IMG/VR virus record: IMGVR_UViG_3300028888_000061
Location: 64,001 to 128,000 of that record
Direction: 5' to 3' (one strand)
DNA length: 64,000 nt
Origin: a virus
Taxonomy: Duplodnaviria > Caudoviricetes
Each line of letters starts with the position of its first letter. Position 1 is the stretch's first letter. Below are positions 779 through 24,051 of the stretch, piece by piece. Under the pieces are notes generated by a model, which was given only the letters and a program-made list of their open reading frames with translations, searched no databases and was not told the origin of the DNA. The position numbers and the translations under genes were made by a program.

Positions 779-1135
779 TTAAACGTACTCTGAATCCATT
801 TCTTCCAGTTCTGCCCGAACTGTCTTCACAATTTTCTCAACGAATGCAGCAGTTTTCTTAAACTTAACCGCCGTAGCTTTATAGTCTTTTGTCTGCCTGT
901 AATGCATGTAAATCTGTACGCAGAGAATGCGACGTTCAATCTCTTCAAATGTGGGAAATTCTATCTTGTCGCCTTGACATAAATCAAGTATCTCAATGAA
1001 CTTATCCCCGAGTGCATACTCTAAGGCGCGAAAGATGTTGCCGTCACTCATGCTATCAAGCAACTCAGACAAAACTTCCCTGTGCGACACAGGCATTTCT
1101 GCGTAAACAACTAAACCGCCCGGCTTTCTTGGCAT
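779..1135 (-). CDS. Mor/C-family-like transcription activator
   Basis: 118 aa; LGDKFIEILDLCQGDKIEFP followed by a C-terminal HTH-like segment (YKATAVKFKKTAAFVEKIVK), the layout of Mu Mor-like proteins. Confidence 0.5.
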   Translation of the reverse strand: MPRKPGGLVVYAEMPVSHREVLSELLDSMSDGNIFRALEYALGDKFIEILDLCQGDKIEFPTFEEIERRILCVQIYMHYRQTKDYKATAVKFKKTAAFVEKIVKTVRAELEEMDSEYV

Positions 1136-1199
1136 CGTAAAACTCCTGTATGTAAACGAACTGACAGATTAACAGCTTATCAACACGAACATAACCATT

Positions 1200-1390
1200 A
1201 TGTTACAATGCATGTTAAGGTGAACTACCCACAGCCTAAAGGCGGTGTGCTTCAAATTCATTAGAATTTGATTTATCCATTCTCACGAATTGGACTTCCT
1301 GTTTCAACGAACAGTCCACATCACCAAAAGATTTGGTTCTGCTTCCCTGCCCTCCGCAGGCATAAGTTCCGATAGTTCCTACCGTACCTT
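1200..1390 (-). ncRNA. Predicted omega/reRNA of TnpB element 1; guide starts at 1219 (CTTAACATGCATTGTAAC...)
   Basis: Established TnpB biology: the reRNA overlaps the tnpB 3' end and right end, and the guide is the flank after TCAC. The 5' boundary is approximate. Confidence 0.6.
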
Positions 1391-2555
1391 TAATCTTGCT
1401 TATCGCATCATTACGCAAATTGATAGCCGCATTGTGATCCCTGCTATGTTCAAGTCCACAAGATGGACAAATCCATTTACGAACGCTCAAATTCTTTACA
1501 GCTTCATTCTTAAAACCACAATGACTGCACAACTGTGATGATGCAAACCACTTATCTGATTTAACAACAGAACAATTATGGAACGTGCTCTTCCATTCAA
1601 GCATATTCACAAATTTATTCCATGACACATCGTTGTAGTTCTTTGCGTTATGGCTGAAACGCATCATGCCTTTAATGTTCAACGTTTCAACACCAATCAC
1701 TTCATAACTACGGACAAGACGGAGAGTTTCTTTCTCCATCCAATCACGCCGCTTATTCGCTATATGTTCTTCAAACTTTGCCAATCGTCGTCTAGCTTTT
1801 TCACGGTTTTTGGAACCTTTCTTGGTTCTCGAAAAGTTCCTCTGTAAATGAGCCAGATGACGTTTTGCTTCTTGCTTGAATGGAACATAATTGTGTGCTG
1901 AGTGATTGTTTGAGTCTATGTAAGCCTTTGACGGAGAAAAATCCAGTCCGATAGCTTGGTTATCACTGCCGGAAAAAGACTTTTCTTTATCGTTCAAACT
2001 TTCATAGACACAACAAATCGAAGCATAACAACGTCCGGATTTAGTTACTTCAACGGTCAAGTTCTTCCGCTTTATCCATTTGTTATGAAACCATGCAGGA
2101 ATATGATTATGACGAAATGTGACCTTACCAATTTTTGGAAATTTCAACCACATTTCATGTTCTGAAAACAGATATTTTGACAGGTCTATTTCTCGAAACG
2201 AGCAACCATCCTTTTTCTTTTTGAAGTGTGGTTTTCCTTTCTTGCCTGCGAAGAAATCAGAGTATGCCTTCTGAGCATCACGACGTGCTTGTTGCAAAGC
2301 AACGGATGAGACTTCTTTCAAGAATGGAAATTGCTCACAAAGCTGTTTCTCTGTCTGGTACTTGAACGCCTTGTAAATCTTGTTCTTTTCATCTTTGTTC
2401 AGGTTACGACCTTTGATGTTATCAGCATAGAATTGTTCCCTTACTTCGACGTATTTGTTATAGACAAAGCGACGACAACCACCAGTTTTTATGAACATCT
2501 GAAACTGCTCTGGTGTAGGGTACAATCTGATTTTAAGACAACGCTTAATTTCCAT
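1236..2555 (-). CDS. tnpB: RNA-guided nuclease TnpB
   Basis: HTH start KIRLYPT, RuvC-I IGLDF, RuvC-II GVETL, zinc finger CSHC/CPSC, RuvC-III RDHNAAINL; catalytic D/E/D intact. Start placed at ATG 2555 rather than TTG 2609. Confidence 0.95.
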   Translation of the reverse strand: MEIKRCLKIRLYPTPEQFQMFIKTGGCRRFVYNKYVEVREQFYADNIKGRNLNKDEKNKIYKAFKYQTEKQLCEQFPFLKEVSSVALQQARRDAQKAYSDFFAGKKGKPHFKKKKDGCSFREIDLSKYLFSEHEMWLKFPKIGKVTFRHNHIPAWFHNKWIKRKNLTVEVTKSGRCYASICCVYESLNDKEKSFSGSDNQAIGLDFSPSKAYIDSNNHSAHNYVPFKQEAKRHLAHLQRNFSRTKKGSKNREKARRRLAKFEEHIANKRRDWMEKETLRLVRSYEVIGVETLNIKGMMRFSHNAKNYNDVSWNKFVNMLEWKSTFHNCSVVKSDKWFASSQLCSHCGFKNEAVKNLSVRKWICPSCGLEHSRDHNAAINLRNDAISKIKGTVGTIGTYACGGQGSRTKSFGDVDCSLKQEVQFVRMDKSNSNEFEAHRL

Positions 2556-2638
2556 TGGTAACTGACCTTTGTTACTGACCGTTTTGAATGGTGGCAAATG
2601 ATCGGTCAAATCATCTTTCGGGGATCAGCCTAGCCACC
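2556..2638 (-). ncRNA. Three-way-junction leader RNA (c4-antisense-like architecture), copy 1
   Basis: GGTGGC-TAG-GCTGATCCCC-GAAA-GATGAT(TTGACCG)ATCATT-T-GCCACC, then CGGTCA-GTAAC-AAAGGTCA-GTTAC-CAATG. Confidence 0.65.
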
Positions 2639-6087: not shown

Positions 6088-7335
6088 TTATTCCTTAATC
6101 AAGTCCAAATGACAAGACCAAGCACCTGATGAAATGTGTAATTCAGAGACATCGGCGGTCACGACAACATCACAGCATGAGGATGGGCATGATTTAAGTA
6201 ACATACTCAACTGAGCAGCATTCACGCACACGGTAAAGTAATTGCGAACCTCTCCAAAAACCTCGTGATGGATTACATGCTTTGTCCCATTATTCTTACC
6301 ACATAACGTAACCGACAACTCTTCGTCATCACCATCTTTGACAAAGCTCACAAGGATGTTGCCATTAAAGAAATCACGCATGTCATCCTGCATAACTGCA
6401 GGAATACTTGCAATACGTTTGAGGGAATCCAACGAGGTTATAATGCCCGCAGATACTTGAACTTTGTCATGTACGACGGATACAGTTCCGAAGCGAGCCA
6501 GAGCGAACTCGAACTGGTCACCAACAAAGCGAACATAAGGGTAGTTGTTCTTAGACTCTGTCTGAATATAAGCTCTAAGAGACTTTGACTGTGTTTTAGA
6601 CAAAAACGATGCAAGAATTTCAGCAGACCATAAAGGGAGTCTGTGAACAAATAAATCACAATCATACCTGACATAACCGCCGGTGTCGTCAACAAAGGCA
6701 TACCCATCTTTAAAAACAAGATTCGGATTAGGTGTCTTCTGTGCTTTTGCGACAACCAAAAGACTGGAGAGAACTTCTTGCATTTCTGACACAGACAGTT
6801 CTTTATCCCAAGTAGGGAAGTTCAACGGAATGTCGAACACACTTTCTGAAAAATTTCCAGTCGGCACATCAAGCCATCCACCAAGCACCAGAGCTCTTAC
6901 ATGAACATGCTCACCATCTTCAATAAATTTAAGGGTGAGATTATCGCCAAGTAACAGATTGTCAAGTTTTTGAAGCATTGACTGCTTCAAAATAACAGGC
7001 TTGCCTTCGTAAACAGCGGTTTTATTCAGCACAGGAATCGACATCTTAATCATCGTTGCGGACGAGTTGTCAGTCGCACTTACGGTAAGACGATTCTCCA
7101 TCGTTCCATTGTCTGTTTCAAACGCATCAACATCAAGCATAAAGAAAACACAATGGGAATCCTTCACACGGTCAGGTAACCGCTGCACGATGTCCAAGAA
7201 CGATTTGAGTGCCTTCCGCCGTATTGTCACATGTGGTTCAGATATGTTGACCTCTTCGTCAGACAAATCTTCGTTCACAAATAACTGATCTTCACTGCAC
7301 ACAGTCTCTAACTCTGCCATAGATTTACACTCCAA
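6088..7335 (-). CDS. Possible sliding-clamp (beta-clamp-like) protein
   Basis: 415 aa; LTVSATD and C-terminal VCVNAAQLSMLLKSC...VVV echo DnaN repeats; replication-gene context. Confidence 0.4.
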   Translation of the reverse strand: MECKSMAELETVCSEDQLFVNEDLSDEEVNISEPHVTIRRKALKSFLDIVQRLPDRVKDSHCVFFMLDVDAFETDNGTMENRLTVSATDNSSATMIKMSIPVLNKTAVYEGKPVILKQSMLQKLDNLLLGDNLTLKFIEDGEHVHVRALVLGGWLDVPTGNFSESVFDIPLNFPTWDKELSVSEMQEVLSSLLVVAKAQKTPNPNLVFKDGYAFVDDTGGYVRYDCDLFVHRLPLWSAEILASFLSKTQSKSLRAYIQTESKNNYPYVRFVGDQFEFALARFGTVSVVHDKVQVSAGIITSLDSLKRIASIPAVMQDDMRDFFNGNILVSFVKDGDDEELSVTLCGKNNGTKHVIHHEVFGEVRNYFTVCVNAAQLSMLLKSCPSSCCDVVVTADVSELHISSGAWSCHLDLIKE

Positions 7336-8233
7336 GTTTGTCCAAATATTGGGTTACGATGTTATGAATTTCGTTTGGCAGTCCCATTTCAGAAACGTAT
7401 GAACGTACAGAAGTTTGTCCGCCGTCATACGAACTGCACAAAGTCTCAACCAAATCGAACATACTCAATGATACCTCTTCCTGGTTGCGCATAATGACCT
7501 CTTCAGGCTTCTTTGCGACAGACACATCAACGAACGAAAATGCATCCGTTGAAACATCATACACCAAGACACGAGGGATACGCATCAGATTATGTGCATC
7601 AGACGAATTTCGTGAAAGACTGCCGGGGCGGTACAGCGTCCAAGACGCTTGTTTAAGAGGCATGTAGGGTGCATGGTCGTGACCGAAAATATACGTGCCA
7701 TAACCAAAGGCATCCAAATCCTCAGTCTGCAAAGACGTATCTGAGAAACCACACTGAAAGTACTCATGTGCCACACAGATTTTCTTCGCTCTGTCCTCAT
7801 CACACGAGGTAATCTTTTGGGAAAAATCATATCCGATGATTTGAAGACCCTCGTCATTCAGGTCAATCGGATTTTCAGAAAGGCGTTTCAAAAACCCAGA
7901 TATGAGCAAGACACCAAGTGATGTATCATTAAGCGTGTCTAGCCTGTCATATCGGATGTCGTGATTACCAACGATAGTGTAACACGTAATCCCGTTATCG
8001 CAGAATGACTGAAACAACTGCATCACTTGTGTGAACAATGACCATGCGACCGTCGGCGCGTCAAACAAATCACCGAGAAACACCACACGGTCGATTTTCT
8101 TTTCCATGCAGTACGACAGAATCCATTTGAGCTTCAGCAGAATGGCTTCTGCATAGTTGTCTTTACGGCACACAGGGTTTTGTGCTTTAAGATGAACGTC
8201 TCCGACGAACATCACTTTATCGTGGTGAATCAT
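7325..8233 (-). CDS. Mre11/SbcD-like nuclease (T4 gp47-like)
   Basis: Phosphoesterase motifs GDVH, GDLFD, GNHD, AHE, GHDH, PGSL; adjacent to the Rad50 pieces. Confidence 0.92.
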   Translation of the reverse strand: MIHHDKVMFVGDVHLKAQNPVCRKDNYAEAILLKLKWILSYCMEKKIDRVVFLGDLFDAPTVAWSLFTQVMQLFQSFCDNGITCYTIVGNHDIRYDRLDTLNDTSLGVLLISGFLKRLSENPIDLNDEGLQIIGYDFSQKITSCDEDRAKKICVAHEYFQCGFSDTSLQTEDLDAFGYGTYIFGHDHAPYMPLKQASWTLYRPGSLSRNSSDAHNLMRIPRVLVYDVSTDAFSFVDVSVAKKPEEVIMRNQEEVSLSMFDLVETLCSSYDGGQTSVRSYVSEMGLPNEIHNIVTQYLDKLGV

Positions 8234-8889
8234 GCCGATACTCCTGTGTCTGATGGTTTATTCTGTTCAAGTGTGTAAACACCGTTCACTACATTGTACA
8301 CCCGATTTCCGTATGGAATAAATCGCTTATCATGTGTGATTAAGACCACGATGAGCCCAATCTGCTTTGTCAACTCTGAGACAAAAGCCATGAAATTCTC
8401 AAGATACGCGGTAGAAATTTGTGTGAAAGCCTCATCCAGAAACACGATTTTCCGAACAGGCAGATTCGACACATAAAAGCACTGGATTAAGAATCCGACT
8501 GTAACAAGAATGCCGCCTGCCACAGAAGAGTCTTTCAAAGGATACTGATACCCACCCTCCTCAAGAACCAACTCAGCACATTTGTTGCCACGCTTATCCG
8601 TTGTTACAATGGTCAGAGAATACTCATGGTCTGTGAAAATCTTTCTCAGACCGAACGTCAGCAGCTTCTCAAGATGGTCTAAAGCACGCCTTGAGAATTT
8701 CTGAACGATATCGTCAATGACAGGCTTAGCCGAATCAAACACACGACCACGTTCCTTCAAATACTCCAGTTGTGCTTTATGACCTGCCAGAATCTCTTCA
8801 TTCTGTTTAGCCTGAGCAACCGCTGCCTTGTAAGCAACAAAAAGCTCGCTTGTACGCTGTTCAATTTCGTCAAAAGTCATGGGTTTCAC
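8230..8889 (-). CDS. Rad50/SbcC C-terminal half (signature and Walker B)
   Basis: Coiled coil, then VAGG signature, IVFLDEAF Walker B, LITHD H-loop. Confidence 0.85.
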   Translation of the reverse strand: MKPMTFDEIEQRTSELFVAYKAAVAQAKQNEEILAGHKAQLEYLKERGRVFDSAKPVIDDIVQKFSRRALDHLEKLLTFGLRKIFTDHEYSLTIVTTDKRGNKCAELVLEEGGYQYPLKDSSVAGGILVTVGFLIQCFYVSNLPVRKIVFLDEAFTQISTAYLENFMAFVSELTKQIGLIVVLITHDKRFIPYGNRVYNVVNGVYTLEQNKPSDTGVSA

Positions 8890-9161
8890 GCCTCTAAAGT
8901 TTGTGCATTGTCGTATGCCTGTAACGCCTGTTCAAGGTCATGCAGTTCAACTGCTAATTCACTTGAAGTACGTTCAAGCAATTCACGTGCAGACAGTTCA
9001 TCGACAACACCATATTCACTCAATGACTCTTTCAAGGCATCAAGCTCTCTTGTCAACGTCTCAAGACGTGCTTCTTCTTTTGCACGTTCGAGCATGATAT
9101 TGTCACGTCGCTTTTTAAGTTCCTCAAATTTCGTAACCATATCCTGTGTTTTAATATCCAT
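8886..9161 (-). CDS. Short coiled-coil protein, probable middle piece of the split Rad50
   Basis: Heptad-rich, about 91 aa from ATG 9161 with AGGAG RBS; stop overlaps the start of the C-terminal half. Confidence 0.6.
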   Translation of the reverse strand: MDIKTQDMVTKFEELKKRRDNIMLERAKEEARLETLTRELDALKESLSEYGVVDELSARELLERTSSELAVELHDLEQALQAYDNAQTLEA

Positions 9162-9209
9162 GTTAAATCTCCTACAAGGTTGAAACAAAAACGAAAGGAA
9201 AACAATGCT

Positions 9210-9250
9210 TATGTATCACAAAGTCGTCATAAACGTGCTTACAGCACCAC
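9210..9250 (-). promoter_or_regulatory. GGTGCTGT-box promoter inside the split Rad50 locus
   Basis: GTGGTGCTGT-N25-TACATA with TG extension; same geometry as seven other copies. Confidence 0.6.
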
Positions 9251-10555
9251 AGACGCTTCGTCGTGAGTACACAAAGGGTTGCCGCATAAAGGGCAAACTT
9301 TAAACTCCGCCAGTTGACTGTCAACGAAATCGCAATCCACATCGAACCCAAGCATCTTCTGCGATGAGACATCAACTTCACGAAACAGAGAGATGGCTAA
9401 GAGACATTTCTCAATAATTTCGTATCGTGACTTTAAGTCAGGGGCATTTCCAAGACGGACAACTGAATTTCGGATATCACGATAGAGATTTACAAGGCGT
9501 GAAATTTTCTCAAGTCTTGACAAGATTTCCATGAACTTGTTTACCGACACAGAAGCAATACTGTCTGACATGCGATAACGAGACAGTTGCTTATTGTAAG
9601 CATCATTCATTTCAACCCATTTCACAACTGTCAGGTAATGTGACAGTGCAGATTCCACACGGTTAATGGGGAATGAAGACACTTCATCACACAGACTAAG
9701 AATCTCACGTGCTTTACGTTGCTCTTCATAGCGAATCACAAGAGAAGACAGCAGATGACGTTTGCGCATCTTGAGCATACACGTGACGATGGAACTGTGC
9801 ATATCTGAATGCTTATGAAGCAATGCAGCACAACGGACACGTTCATCCTGCAACGTAGAAATCCGAGTGAGAATCGAACGAAGACTTTCAATCCGTTCAC
9901 GTTTCATCTTGACCTGCATTACACGTGCATACAAATCAGGAATTGCAGACAGCTCTTTTACACGTGCATCAGACTTTTCAAGTTCAAGCTCAAACTGTGA
10001 AACCAATTCAGTACTCAGCTTTATCTGGTCTGCAATATCTTTCACGTCAGCTTTATACAGGTCATCAAGCCTTGAGACATCGAAACTCTCATGGTAAGTC
10101 AAAACCGAATACAAAGTTGATGGTGAACCGAGTAGAAGGAACGGTCCAGCAAACTGACTGGAAAAGTTAAAATTCACAGACTCAGAGTCAATTTTGACTG
10201 AGGACACTTTCAGGGAATTTGCAACCACATCAAGCTGCTGCCTACCCAGCTTTGTGTACTCTTCGCCGTTCACCACATAACAGGCTTTTCTGTCACGGGC
10301 TTTGGTATCACGTGTATATGTGACATGTGCGTCCCCGGTATCCACATCAATCTGCATCATACCAGAACCATGCGTAACCATAGCATCCGTAAAGCTGTTG
10401 TCCGCAAGACCACGCAAAGCACGCAGTAATGTGGACTTACCGGAAGAGCTTGCACCAAGAATAAGATTGACTCCTGGAACAAAAGACAAGCTCGCCTCGC
10501 GAATAATACCTACGTTTGTCAATTCAACTTTAAACACTGCACTCTCCAAAAACAA
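9239..10555 (-). CDS. Rad50/SbcC N-terminal half (Walker A to zinc hook)
   Basis: GVNLILGASSSGKST Walker A, Q-loop SSQF, long coiled coil, CPLCG zinc hook near the C-terminus. Confidence 0.88.
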   Translation of the reverse strand: MFLESAVFKVELTNVGIIREASLSFVPGVNLILGASSSGKSTLLRALRGLADNSFTDAMVTHGSGMMQIDVDTGDAHVTYTRDTKARDRKACYVVNGEEYTKLGRQQLDVVANSLKVSSVKIDSESVNFNFSSQFAGPFLLLGSPSTLYSVLTYHESFDVSRLDDLYKADVKDIADQIKLSTELVSQFELELEKSDARVKELSAIPDLYARVMQVKMKRERIESLRSILTRISTLQDERVRCAALLHKHSDMHSSIVTCMLKMRKRHLLSSLVIRYEEQRKAREILSLCDEVSSFPINRVESALSHYLTVVKWVEMNDAYNKQLSRYRMSDSIASVSVNKFMEILSRLEKISRLVNLYRDIRNSVVRLGNAPDLKSRYEIIEKCLLAISLFREVDVSSQKMLGFDVDCDFVDSQLAEFKVCPLCGNPLCTHDEASVVL

Positions 10556-10591
10556 ATACCACGCAAGGTGCGTAAAACTTAATACGGGTAC

Positions 10592-10632
10592 GTTTTACCA
10601 CAAAGTCGATATAGAAAAGAGTACAGCACCAC
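10592..10632 (-). promoter_or_regulatory. GGTGCTGT-box promoter (Rad50-N)
   Basis: GTGGTGCTGT-N25-TAAAAC, preceded by TGTGG. Confidence 0.65.
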
Positions 10633-10646
10633 GACAAGTGAGACAC

Positions 10647-10683
10647 AAAAAAAAAGCGTTCTGTGATTAGCAGAACGCTTTTT
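10647..10683 (-). terminator. Intrinsic terminator, possibly bidirectional
   Basis: AAAAAGCGTTCTG-7 nt-CAGAACGCTTTTT, with a 9-T tail on the minus strand. Confidence 0.8.
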
Positions 10684-11268
10684 CATGCAATTCGACACGG
10701 AGGGCACAAAGCCCTTACAATCAATGATGATACAAGTAACATCATAAACCTGAGACTTTAAGGGTAGGAGTATTCCCCACACGAAACGTGCGCTCTGGCG
10801 ATTCTGCCGTAAGTCACAAGGTGTGACCATCCAAGTAGGTTACATGGCTTTCCAACGTACAGCCCTTTACGGGAATTGTGTGCAACGAATCTCCCACATC
10901 TAGCCATCCACTCACCACCGGTTTTGTACCCCGGTGATGAACTGTGCGAGCAAGCCCGTAGGCCCGTTTTCCCTCGTCACAGTCAAGCGTCAAAACGAAG
11001 GTGCACGCCACGATCAATCCGTGTTAGTCATCTCACCCAATAAACACTTCTTCAGAAAACCTACCACAACCGTGATAACCTTTCTGAAGAAGTGTGTAGA
11101 GGAAACGTAAGTCAAGTTAAGACAGCCGCGAAGCCAATCTTTGCTTTTTTCTTGCTCGGAAACAACCCACAAACTCAACACATATAAGATCCTGTACGTT
11201 GGAAAGCCATGTACCAAACCCTTCTTCACCTGTCAAATAACTGCGGCAGGTCTAATGTGCCGCAATCT
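10647..11268 (-). ncRNA. Candidate large structured non-coding RNA (~620 nt)
   Basis: No convincing ORF; upstream TTGCAC-N17-TATCTA; perfect 22-bp (10841-10862/11192-11213) and 15-bp (11044-11058/11081-11095) inverted repeats plus further hairpins; ends at a terminator. Confidence 0.6.
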
Positions 11269-11327
11269 TACTGTTTAGATAACACAGAAATAAAAACCGT
11301 GCAACGTATTTGCTCAACGAAATAAAC

Positions 11328-11723
11328 TCAGCAACAACAGTCAGAACAAATCCGGCTCCAATGAAGAGGGTCAATCTCTGCGTAACCTTCCCAATCAACA
11401 AGGAAATGTTTGCCTTCCTTGTAAAAAATGTCACCTAGCACATTGAAGAACCCTGGATGGATAACCACAACGCCGGTATAGTCCAAGAGGAATGAAAACA
11501 GCACCGTATCATTCCTGTTCATAGGCAGTTCAGAAATGACAAGGAAATGTCCGTCAATCACATCATAAACCACACGTGACATCACACAATGAAGCGACAA
11601 CCACTCACGCATGATGCAAGCATACTGAAAACAGTTGCCTGTAAGCCATGTGGATTCGTCAGGGAAACGTCTGGAACGGTAACTAAAATATTCAGATTCT
11701 AGTTCAGAGAGGCATTGAATCAT
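11328..11723 (-). CDS. Small papain/transglutaminase-like fold protein
   Basis: GNCFQYA...GHFLV...LDYTG suggests a Cys-His-Asp triad. Confidence 0.4.
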   Translation of the reverse strand: MIQCLSELESEYFSYRSRRFPDESTWLTGNCFQYACIMREWLSLHCVMSRVVYDVIDGHFLVISELPMNRNDTVLFSFLLDYTGVVVIHPGFFNVLGDIFYKEGKHFLVDWEGYAEIDPLHWSRICSDCCC

Positions 11724-22830: not shown

Positions 22831-23075
22831 GTGTTGAAATTGTTGAAGTTCAGACAGTTTTCAGAAAATTTTGAAAGCTGAAAAAGCTGAAGAAAAAGTG
22901 CGAATTTTGGTTGAGGACAAATTTTATGGAAGTTAATACGGCTGGCATGATTTTTGCTAGAAGACTTGTACGTAAGTACTCATCCACCTGTGAACTATGA
23001 TTTTGGTTAAAGACCGATTCAGGCATATTCCTGTTTTGCTTTACTTTGAATGGAATTTGCTGTATCAGAAAATTT

Positions 23076-23171
23076 GTGTGGCTAGGGTAGCTACCGAAAA
23101 GACGTAAAGCCTAACGTCCGCCACACTCTCTTTTTAGAGATGACTCAGGCACGTATTTGAGGCTGAATACC
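23076..23171 (+). ncRNA. Three-way-junction leader RNA, orphan copy 3
   Basis: GTGTGGC-TAG-GGTAGCTACC-GAAAA-GACGT(AAAGCCTA)ACGTC-C-GCCACAC ... AGGCACGTATTTGAGGCTGAATACC. Confidence 0.65.
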
Positions 23172-23187
23172 GTTAAAATTTCACGCC

Positions 23188-24051
23188 TTGAACTTTAACA
23201 GATGCGATTGGGAAACCCACCGCTTTCGTATTTCCTGTATGGAGTGTTTTATGTTCGAGACTGCACGCACAGATACTTCCTGTGCATCAAAGACTTTGTT
23301 TTCGATGGCTGTAAAGATTTGTGGTATACAGACATTGATAACTGAGTTAGGTACTTTGGTATCATCCAAGGACGTTGGAGCTTCCTGTGACGATAATGCT
23401 GATGAACTGTTTACCTCGGATGTTCAGTTTGTTGGAATCAAGCAGAGGCCATTGAATGAGTCTGTCTGTTCTGCATTACGGAGAGAATCCTGGTGTCTGT
23501 TGAATCATGTTCCAATTCCTCTGTCGCTTGAATTTTACAGAGACCTTCAAAGTGCTACTTTTGAGTTTGGTTCTTTTCTGAACGATACCAGGACTTCATC
23601 TGTTTCTTCTTGTCCCATTGGAAAATTTCGTTCGTCGAAGTTGTTTTTCTCTCTTGACCTTTATCGTGATTTTGCCATTTCTCGTTCCGCTTCTGAGAAT
23701 GGCGACTGTCGCCTTTATCTGTCGATTTCCAACATCTTGTCCCAATGGGATACCTCAATTTTTGAAACGCTTCTTAATGAATCGGATGTCACCTCGATAT
23801 CTTACGCGCTCTCGCAGCTTGTCGGTAAAAAAGAATCTGCTTTAGAACTCAGTAATGGAACGCAGAAGGCTCTTTATCGTTACGTGCTCGCTTTCCGCTC
23901 GGCTTTACCTGATAGTTATCTCCGCCTGTTCTCTTACCGGTCAAAGTACGTTGCGTTCTATCCGTACAAAACTTTAAAGCTCCTTGGATTTCCTCCTGTT
24001 GTTGAATTTGAAGGGATGATTAAGAATAACTTACTTGGTATTGTGGAGTAA
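23188..24051 (+). CDS. Hypothetical protein, first gene right of the candidate origin
   Basis: Long ORF; start uncertain (ATG 23251 has an upstream GGAG). Confidence 0.6.
   Translation: MNFNRCDWETHRFRISCMECFMFETARTDTSCASKTLFSMAVKICGIQTLITELGTLVSSKDVGASCDDNADELFTSDVQFVGIKQRPLNESVCSALRRESWCLLNHVPIPLSLEFYRDLQSATFEFGSFLNDTRTSSVSSCPIGKFRSSKLFFSLDLYRDFAISRSASENGDCRLYLSISNILSQWDTSIFETLLNESDVTSISYALSQLVGKKESALELSNGTQKALYRYVLAFRSALPDSYLRLFSYRSKYVAFYPYKTLKLLGFPPVVEFEGMIKNNLLGIVE

Follow-up and report, generated by a model that had tools for sequence, protein, structure and literature searches.

A gene for a structured non-coding RNA (ncRNA) of ~620 nucleotides (nt), standing alone and belonging to a family that is not in Rfam, very probably lies on the minus strand at positions 10641–11304 of the stretch analyzed here (probability about 0.85). 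This stretch, referred to as the window, comprises 64,000 nt (bases 64001–128000) of the 138-kb IMG/VR virus record IMGVR_UViG_3300028888_000061, whose estimated completeness is 72%. Comparison of eight lineages has shown that selection acts on the base-pairing of the RNA and not on coding capacity or on the DNA, and the family has so far been seen only in a clade of uncultured jumbo phages of the ruminant gut. The self-contained unit was also shown to be bracketed by a predicted host-type promoter and intrinsic terminator of its own. It thus has the features of an independent ncRNA gene, namely its own promoter and terminator, a covarying structure and no conserved open reading frame (ORF). 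An initial annotation of the region had proposed a large ncRNA in its own transcription unit, similar in order of size to ROOL and GOLLD, and this proposal is borne out by covariation across the eight lineages, by strand-specific G-U pairs and by the absence of a conserved ORF and of any Rfam match. The helices, hairpins, promoter and terminator that it listed are all present, at or within 1–2 nt of where it had placed them.

Base-pairing is conserved across eight lineages

A scan of IMG/VR with one arm of the closing helix gave two near-identical contigs, each with both copies of the arm. Downstream of the unit, the gene at 9239–10555 encodes an AAA_23 SbcC/Rad50-like ATPase and is followed by a Metallophos nuclease gene, and relatives were collected mostly via this ATPase (protein identities of 95, 83, 57, 53, 50 and 49%). 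A gene-free gap of 0.8–1.1 kb lies upstream of the ATPase gene in all of these relatives, and the RNA unit was aligned by nhmmer along its whole length in each (expectation values (E) from 1e-161 to 2e-17). Units upstream of the ATPase gene are found in contigs L009/L028, L020, L026, L021, L022, L010/L027 and L029, with a partial copy in L030; L026, one further contig, was found when metagenomes were scanned for the best-conserved block of the RNA. The window, L009, L020, L026, L021, L022, L010 and L029 provide eight distinct full-length copies. A homologue search had been recommended in the initial annotation, and indeed compensatory changes were observed in the helices of these copies.

RNAalifold, applied to six sequences, predicted 106 pairs, 51 of them with double-sided compensatory changes. 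A curated core structure (P1, P2, P2a, P2b, P3, P4 and P5) was then counted on a MAFFT alignment of all eight sequences (393 columns). The proposed pairing formed a standard pair in 87.5% of cells, compared with 39%–47% when the 3′ partners were slid by 1–3 columns and 79.4% after shuffling. Changes on both sides were seen in 26 pairs, compared with 6–12 for the slid controls and 15.2 ± 2.3 for the shuffled ones, and the covariation score of 0.320 fell to 0.08–0.13 and 0.175, respectively. None of the 500 shuffles reached the observed value for any of the three measures. The slid controls are the fairer comparison because shuffling ignores phylogeny.

The core of the RNA, ~370 nt, is closed by P1 (22–26 base pairs (bp)), which encloses a multi-helix junction of P2 with its two hairpins, P3, P4 and P5; the 3′ domain follows. 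In the window, P1 is a perfect 22-bp helix between 11192–11213 (5′ strand) and 10841–10862 (3′ strand). Its arms lie 329 nt apart, and by our estimate chance alone would give ~3e-8 pairs of this kind in 1.1 kb. All 17 tested pairs of P1 are formed in all eight sequences (100%), and 8 of the 17 have changed on both sides. The perfect repeat starts and ends with TA, and it had been suggested as an alternative that the arms are the termini of a miniature inverted-repeat transposable element (MITE) with a duplicated TA target site; the phage does carry TnpB/IS605-type elements elsewhere. This explanation nevertheless retains next to no probability. The element is present once in the 138-kb record; its slot is constant across the eight lineages, even where the ATPase is only 49% identical, and the empty sites in relatives that would point to a MITE were found in none of the eight. 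Moreover, the arms differ between lineages through compensatory changes and G-U pairs that are sensible only in RNA, conserved sequence is found between the arms as well as beyond them, and both the promoter and the terminator are external to them.

Inside P1, the 5′ strand of P2 (AUCUUAU, 11184–11190, with an invariant core UCUUA) is proposed to pair with GUGAGAU at 11030–11036. The five pairs of P2 (UCUUA/UGAGA) and those of P5 are invariant, so that covariation neither supports nor contradicts these two helices. P2a (helix 3; 11119–11151) is a tetraloop hairpin, AAGAU-U-GGCU UCGC GGCU-GUCUU, preceded by the conserved A-rich strand GAAAAAAG (11144–11151); its loop is UUCG-like and reads GCGA in L010. 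It is 90% paired, and two of its pairs have changed on both sides. P2b (11041–11098) is a long hairpin of ~24 bp with arms at 11041–11067 and 11072–11098, including a perfect 15-bp part (11044–11058/11081–11095). Half of its pairs (12 of 24) show changes on both sides, and compensatory changes are found even between L010 and L029. The most conserved block of the RNA (11009–11036) comprises the 3′ strand of P2 (GUGAGAU), a GACUAA junction and the P3 hairpin CACGG-AUUGA-UCGUG, which is 100% paired with one double change. In P4 (10880–11006), GUGCA at 11002–11006 pairs with UGCAC at 10880–10884, with three of the five pairs changed on both sides. P4 encloses variable hairpins, among them CACCGG/CCGGUG at ~10917–10937, that persist between lineages though their sequences differ completely. 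The segment 10863–10879 contains the junction CACAAUU, of which the core CACA is invariant, and the P5 hairpin CCC-GUAAA-GGG, with a GNRA-like pentaloop, stacked directly on the 3′ strand of P1; it also holds the invariant run AGGGCUGU. Together with CAGG, UCUUA, UGAGAUG, UUGAUCG and CACA, this run is among the longest in the alignment, and all of them fall at helix ends, junctions and loops. The conserved junction core with its GNRA-like and A-rich elements suggests a compact tertiary fold.

The 3′ domain (10690–10840) contains the hairpins GUCACA/UGUGAC (~10815–10829), GGC/GCC and CACG/CGUG and two conserved motifs. The first of these, ACUCCU, is invariant at 10766–10771. The second is a hairpin, AAGGGC-UUUGU-GCCCU-CC at 10699–10716 (family form AAGGGC-UUYGU-GCCCU), which carries a double change from G-C to U-A in L010, L029 and L030. 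The invariant ACUCCU and CCUCC were considered as anti-Shine-Dalgarno mimics or pseudoknot partners, and no consistently complementary conserved partner was found for them.

The GC content of the region is slightly above that of its surroundings, and both strands fold well: the predicted energy is −241 kcal/mol for the minus strand and −200 kcal/mol for the plus strand (z = −7.65 and −7.58, respectively, relative to dinucleotide shuffles). Such symmetry (z ∼ −7.6 each) might be expected of an element acting as DNA, for instance a replication origin, a packaging site or a palindromic substrate of SbcCD whose hairpins are cruciforms, and the long inverted repeats do adjoin recombination and replication genes. 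Pairing is, however, better on one of the two strands. The counted helices contain 63 G-U cells on the minus strand and only 17 A-C cells, the counterpart of G-U pairs on the opposite strand, and 87.5% of cells are paired in the sense direction vs 79.0% in the antisense direction. The G-U bias favors the minus strand as the sense of the RNA, which fits the direction in which promoter and terminator point. A DNA element is further disfavored by the conserved promoter and terminator that flank the unit, by the lack of iterons or an AT-rich unwinding stretch, and by the presence of part of the unit in RNA libraries at a depth far above that of flanking genes; it is accordingly given very little weight.

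Coding capacity offers no better account of the conservation. As the initial annotation had noted, the gap contains only short ORFs. Those within the unit reach at most 71 residues (39–71 on the minus strand), and an 83-residue ORF (10579–10830) runs into its 3′ end. Across the relatives, no ORF retains its position and frame; L029 has three ORFs of at least 35 residues, none of which matches those of the window. Relatives that are 93% identical are separated by indels of 1 and 2 nt that shift the frames, and elsewhere the ORFs break or vanish. Substitutions in the stems are compensatory and not synonymous. The conserved coding signal that would have spoken for a protein-coding region is missing across the relatives, and one or more small proteins encoded here are scarcely credible despite the existence of these ORFs.

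The transcription unit and its signals

The predicted promoter (11276–11304, minus strand) is of the sigma-70/sigma-A type, with a −35 element TTGCAC at 11299–11304, a 17-nt spacer and an extended −10 element TGtTATCTA at 11276–11284, and would start transcription at ~11268–11270. The layout TTGCxx-N17-TATCTA is kept in six of the eight lineages (the window, L009, L020, L026, L010 and L029), and the motif TGnTATCTAAA is unique in the 138-kb record. A simple promoter scan missed it because the scan requires T at the last −10 position. At the other end, the strong intrinsic terminator (10641–10684) consists of a hairpin at 10650–10684, with a 14-bp stem and a 7-nt loop, and a run of 9 U; terminators occur at the matching position in L009, L020, L026, L010, L029 and L030. 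Beyond it, outside the RNA and marking its boundary, lies the phage-type promoter box of the ATPase gene (10590–10632, minus strand; GTGGTGCTGT ... TTTGTGG), which follows the RNA terminator in the relatives too. This arrangement, GTGGTGCTG(T), ~20 nt and TTTGTG, recurs in 16 copies in the 138-kb record, preceding numerous genes of either strand, the ORF at 8886–9188 (box at 9250) among them, and the recurrent GTGGTGCTG box probably represents a middle or late class of promoters belonging to the phage itself. The neighboring genes use this 16-copy box and the RNA unit a different motif, which places the RNA in a host-type transcription class. Host RNA polymerase would then make the RNA from a promoter class distinct from that of the neighboring phage genes.

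The unit always directly precedes the ATPase gene and shares its orientation, as would be expected if it were a long cis-acting leader, attenuator- or riboswitch-like, of the SbcC/Rad50-like recombination-nuclease operon. Such a role seems improbable. The 14-bp stem and U9 run terminate the unit, whereas the ATPase gene has its own phage-type box downstream, and a small ORF intervenes between the RNA unit and the ATPase gene in L010 and L024 and likewise on the gene map of the contig of P0008. A length of 620 nt with a multi-helix junction also far exceeds that of known leaders, and the linkage is partly an artifact of how the homologues were discovered.

Just after its predicted start, the RNA forms a small hairpin in every lineage, although the sequence of this hairpin varies. 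In the window it spans 11240–11266, with arms AUUGCGGCA and UGCCGCAGU; the corresponding arms are GAUGCG-A-GGC and GCC-CGCGUC in L010 and UGCGAU and AUCGCA in L020. Directly 3′ of this hairpin lies a single-stranded boxA-like motif (11228–11240), which reads UUAUUUGACA in the window, GUUCUUUGAAAG in L009 and YCCUUGAAA in L020, L026, L021, L010 and L029. In the rrn operons of Bacillus subtilis, a small 5′ hairpin is reported to be followed at once by the boxA-like consensus AUGAUCUUUGAAA, which binds NusB (2026 study; PMC13753749). The likeness rests on an 8-mer match, weak when taken alone, that is present in six lineages and deviates in the window and L022.

Part of the unit is also represented in RNA libraries. 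In sheep-gut metatranscriptomes (two libraries of one sample), contigs 100% identical to the window cover 10862–11036 (run X19) and 10889–11032 (run X20). Their word depths were 125 and 173, compared with 2–5 for contigs of the same phage on neighboring genes in the same runs; the runs had been picked because they hold the stretch, and assembled contigs carry no strand, ends or true level. Run X21 gave only unrelated pieces. These depths are no more than suggestive of an abundant RNA. The span of the contigs was considered as a fragment processed by RNase III, with cuts in P1 and P2b, and was not used in this way; the uncovered parts of contigs prove nothing. Positions at which strains differ (L009 and L020) are found no more than a few bases from the ends of the contigs, and the X20 contig has adapter letters at both ends. 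Because the ends adjoin strain-variable sites, assembly breaks are an equally good explanation of the span.

Several points weigh against the interpretation of the region as a structured RNA gene. There are eight full-length sequences, from one narrow clade and mostly found via a neighboring gene; as a consequence, the significance obtained by shuffling is overstated and the synteny is partly a matter of ascertainment. P2 and several helices of the 3′ domain show no covariation, and the conserved UCUUAY has an alternative local partner, UGUGGG. In the leader, the boxA-like copy of the window is degenerate, with two mismatches, and that of L022 is unrecognizable. Finally, the RNA evidence consists of assembled contigs of a single sample, which lack strand and ends.

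Relation to known RNAs and possible functions

To our knowledge, very few large, intricately folded ncRNAs have been described from bacteria and phages: ROOL, GOLLD, OLE, raiA and HEARO. Each large structured ncRNA has opened new biochemistry, most recently in the form of RNA-only nanocages. The initial annotation could assign the region to no family by eye, and a search of the whole window with cmscan and Rfam 15 likewise gave no match in the region at gathering thresholds. With permissive filters and E up to 10, the segment 10400–11500 gave no ROOL, GOLLD or other family but only noise in the form of microRNA-like hairpins, and five homologous loci searched at E up to 5 also gave no ROOL, GOLLD or other match. 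OLE, RNase P, transfer-messenger RNA (tmRNA), group I and II introns, HEARO and ribosomal RNA (rRNA) were equally without an Rfam match, and ARAGORN found no transfer RNA (tRNA) or tmRNA in the 64-kb window.

ROOL (Rfam RF03087) has an average length of 581 nt and was originally found in metagenomes from the rumen (Weinberg et al., 2017; PMC5737381), and both ROOL and GOLLD are phage-encoded, abundant and form RNA-only nanocages, as observed by electron cryo-microscopy (10.1101/2024.12.08.627333). The RNA described here shares with ROOL its large size (~620 nt), its ornate, multi-junction structure, its occurrence in the rumen and its free-standing, phage-encoded gene; ROOL is highly expressed, and the present RNA is apparently abundant. 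It also resembles ROOL in being near ~580 nt, in its phage or prophage context and in its rumen and Firmicute occurrence, the latter via the nearest cultured phages. Nevertheless, it is highly unlikely that the RNA is a far-diverged ROOL or GOLLD. No covariance-model match was obtained even at the permissive settings given above. ROOL is often near tRNA genes, whereas here there is no tRNA island, and the single tRNA-Lys of the 138-kb record lies ~33 kb from the RNA unit. In addition, the RNA is found only in contigs of lytic-type jumbo phages and is absent from bacterial genomes and prophages, and the dominant parts of its structure are a single, very long closing helix and a leader of the rrn-like kind. 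GOLLD, which is reported to rise during phage lysis, is likewise large, structured and associated with phages, and it is laid out in two domains, one conserved and the other more variable, but it is larger (often >800 nt) and usually adjoins tRNAs. The pRNA of phi29, a phage-encoded structural ncRNA acting in trans, provides a precedent for RNA as a machine part; at 174 nt it has a different fold and genomic context, and the RNA described here has no Rfam match to it.

By analogy with these RNAs, the product is likely to be a stable RNA that acts in trans. It would accumulate during infection as a structural scaffold or as part of a ribonucleoprotein or RNA-only assembly, and a scaffold or assembly role, as suggested by ROOL and GOLLD, is the leading guess. 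That the RNA forms a multimeric assembly of its own appears doubtful.

The leader invites a comparison with rRNA operons, with which the unit shares a strong host-type promoter, a 5′ hairpin, the motif YCUUGAAA and then a long helix bracketing a structured RNA; the enclosed RNA is, however, not rRNA-like, as no Rfam rRNA model matches it. The 5′ hairpin and YCUUGAAA could work in the manner of the hairpin-boxA leader found in Firmicute rRNA operons and recruit NusB and S10, which would allow the polymerase to pass the numerous hairpins while the RNA folds co-transcriptionally. Recruitment of Nus factors by such a leader is a tentative proposal, given somewhat less than even odds. If correct, it suggests a route by which a phage may borrow host machinery for the synthesis and folding of a stable RNA. 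A more far-reaching possibility, which is speculative and rather unlikely, is that the whole unit mimics an rRNA operon, with a Nus-recruiting leader, a clamp or processing stem and a very abundant RNA assembling into a large particle used in infection. The host-type promoter, 5′ hairpin and boxA-like element would then recruit the host Nus antitermination complex, and the flanking stem of 22–26 bp would be either a clamp for folding or a stem for processing. By itself or together with proteins of the phage or host, the RNA of ~370–620 nt would assemble into a particle that might, for example, sequester ribosomal or defense components.

The family adds another large ornate RNA, from lytic-type rumen jumbo phages, with a clean and testable architecture. 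The covariation is strong despite the small number of sequences, which makes the RNA a compact new target for structural biologists, and for phage biologists it represents a conserved gene that does not encode a protein.

The phage, its neighboring genes and other loci

Sequencing runs holding the stretch come from sheep, goat and bovine gut metagenomes of 11 studies. The genomes of the clade are ~230–245 kb, and the phage is regarded as a jumbo phage because close relatives reach 227–243 kb. Its portal protein is T4-like, and by this protein the nearest cultured relatives are the Firmicute jumbo phages Bacillus SP-15 and Listeria LIS04, at only ~29% identity. The most conserved block of the RNA had no match in 185,579 prokaryote species genomes, and the region with its 6-kb surroundings had none in the phage GenBank collection by blastn and megablast. 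A query of IMG/VR with the ATPase alignment added no further lineage, and an IMG/VR scan with the 17-mer ATTCCNGTAAAGGGCTG gave five chance matches (L011–L015) in unrelated, mostly coding sequence, which were rejected. In L025, whose ATPase is 35% identical, there is neither gap nor RNA, and the upstream region is missing in L023.

Upstream of the RNA in the window is a conserved small gene of 131 residues (11328–11723), for which Pfam and PHROGs give nothing. L029 (1–260, compared with 2038–2955 of L010) lacks the two small genes (107 and 124 residues) that precede the RNA in the 85%-identical L010. The 131-residue gene is therefore dispensable and no obligatory partner of the RNA. In L020, a relative with 83% ATPase identity, a gene located two genes upstream of the RNA (1130–1819, plus strand) encodes a 229-residue protein with a Cas12f1-like TNB zinc ribbon; at this position the window has a 108-residue ORF with no Pfam match. 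The phage also encodes a full-length TnpB (1236–2609, minus strand; domains HTH_OrfB_IS605, OrfB_IS605 and Cas12f1-like TNB), which was considered as a clue to the host and has no close relative in the 185,579 prokaryote species genomes.

Downstream, the SbcC/Rad50-like function is apparently split (8230–10555, minus strand) into the AAA_23 N-terminal ATPase at 9239–10555, a 100-residue ORF at 8886–9188 and an ATPase-family C-terminal part at 8230–8889 (phrog_15167), followed by an SbcD-like Metallophos nuclease at 7325–8233. This gene order is likewise called in all relatives.

A further ORF-free unit of ~700 nt occupies the same slot in L024 (1062–1805, plus strand), whose ATPase is 35% identical. 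It begins with a 5′ hairpin followed by UUCUUUGAAACUUGAAUAAC, in which 15 of 19 bases are as in L020, and it ends with a terminator. A composite long-range helix (1167–1176/1485–1494 and 1179–1206/1454–1481) closes it, and a 3′ hairpin, UGUAAGGGC-AUAUAC-GCCCUCUCC, resembles that of the family (UAAGGGC...GCCCUC). The core motifs are missing from the L024 unit, and it gave no nhmmer match and no Rfam match above noise. It may be a homologue that has diverged very far, or else the family's expression platform fitted with another core. A platform of leader, closing stem, 3′ hairpin and terminator carrying a different core is a hint that phage “designer” RNAs may form a modular family.

Elsewhere in the window, the sole Rfam match above its gathering score is an int-alpA RNA (RF02996, 37.5 bits) at 23075–23140 on the plus strand, located just upstream of an ORF at 23188–24051.

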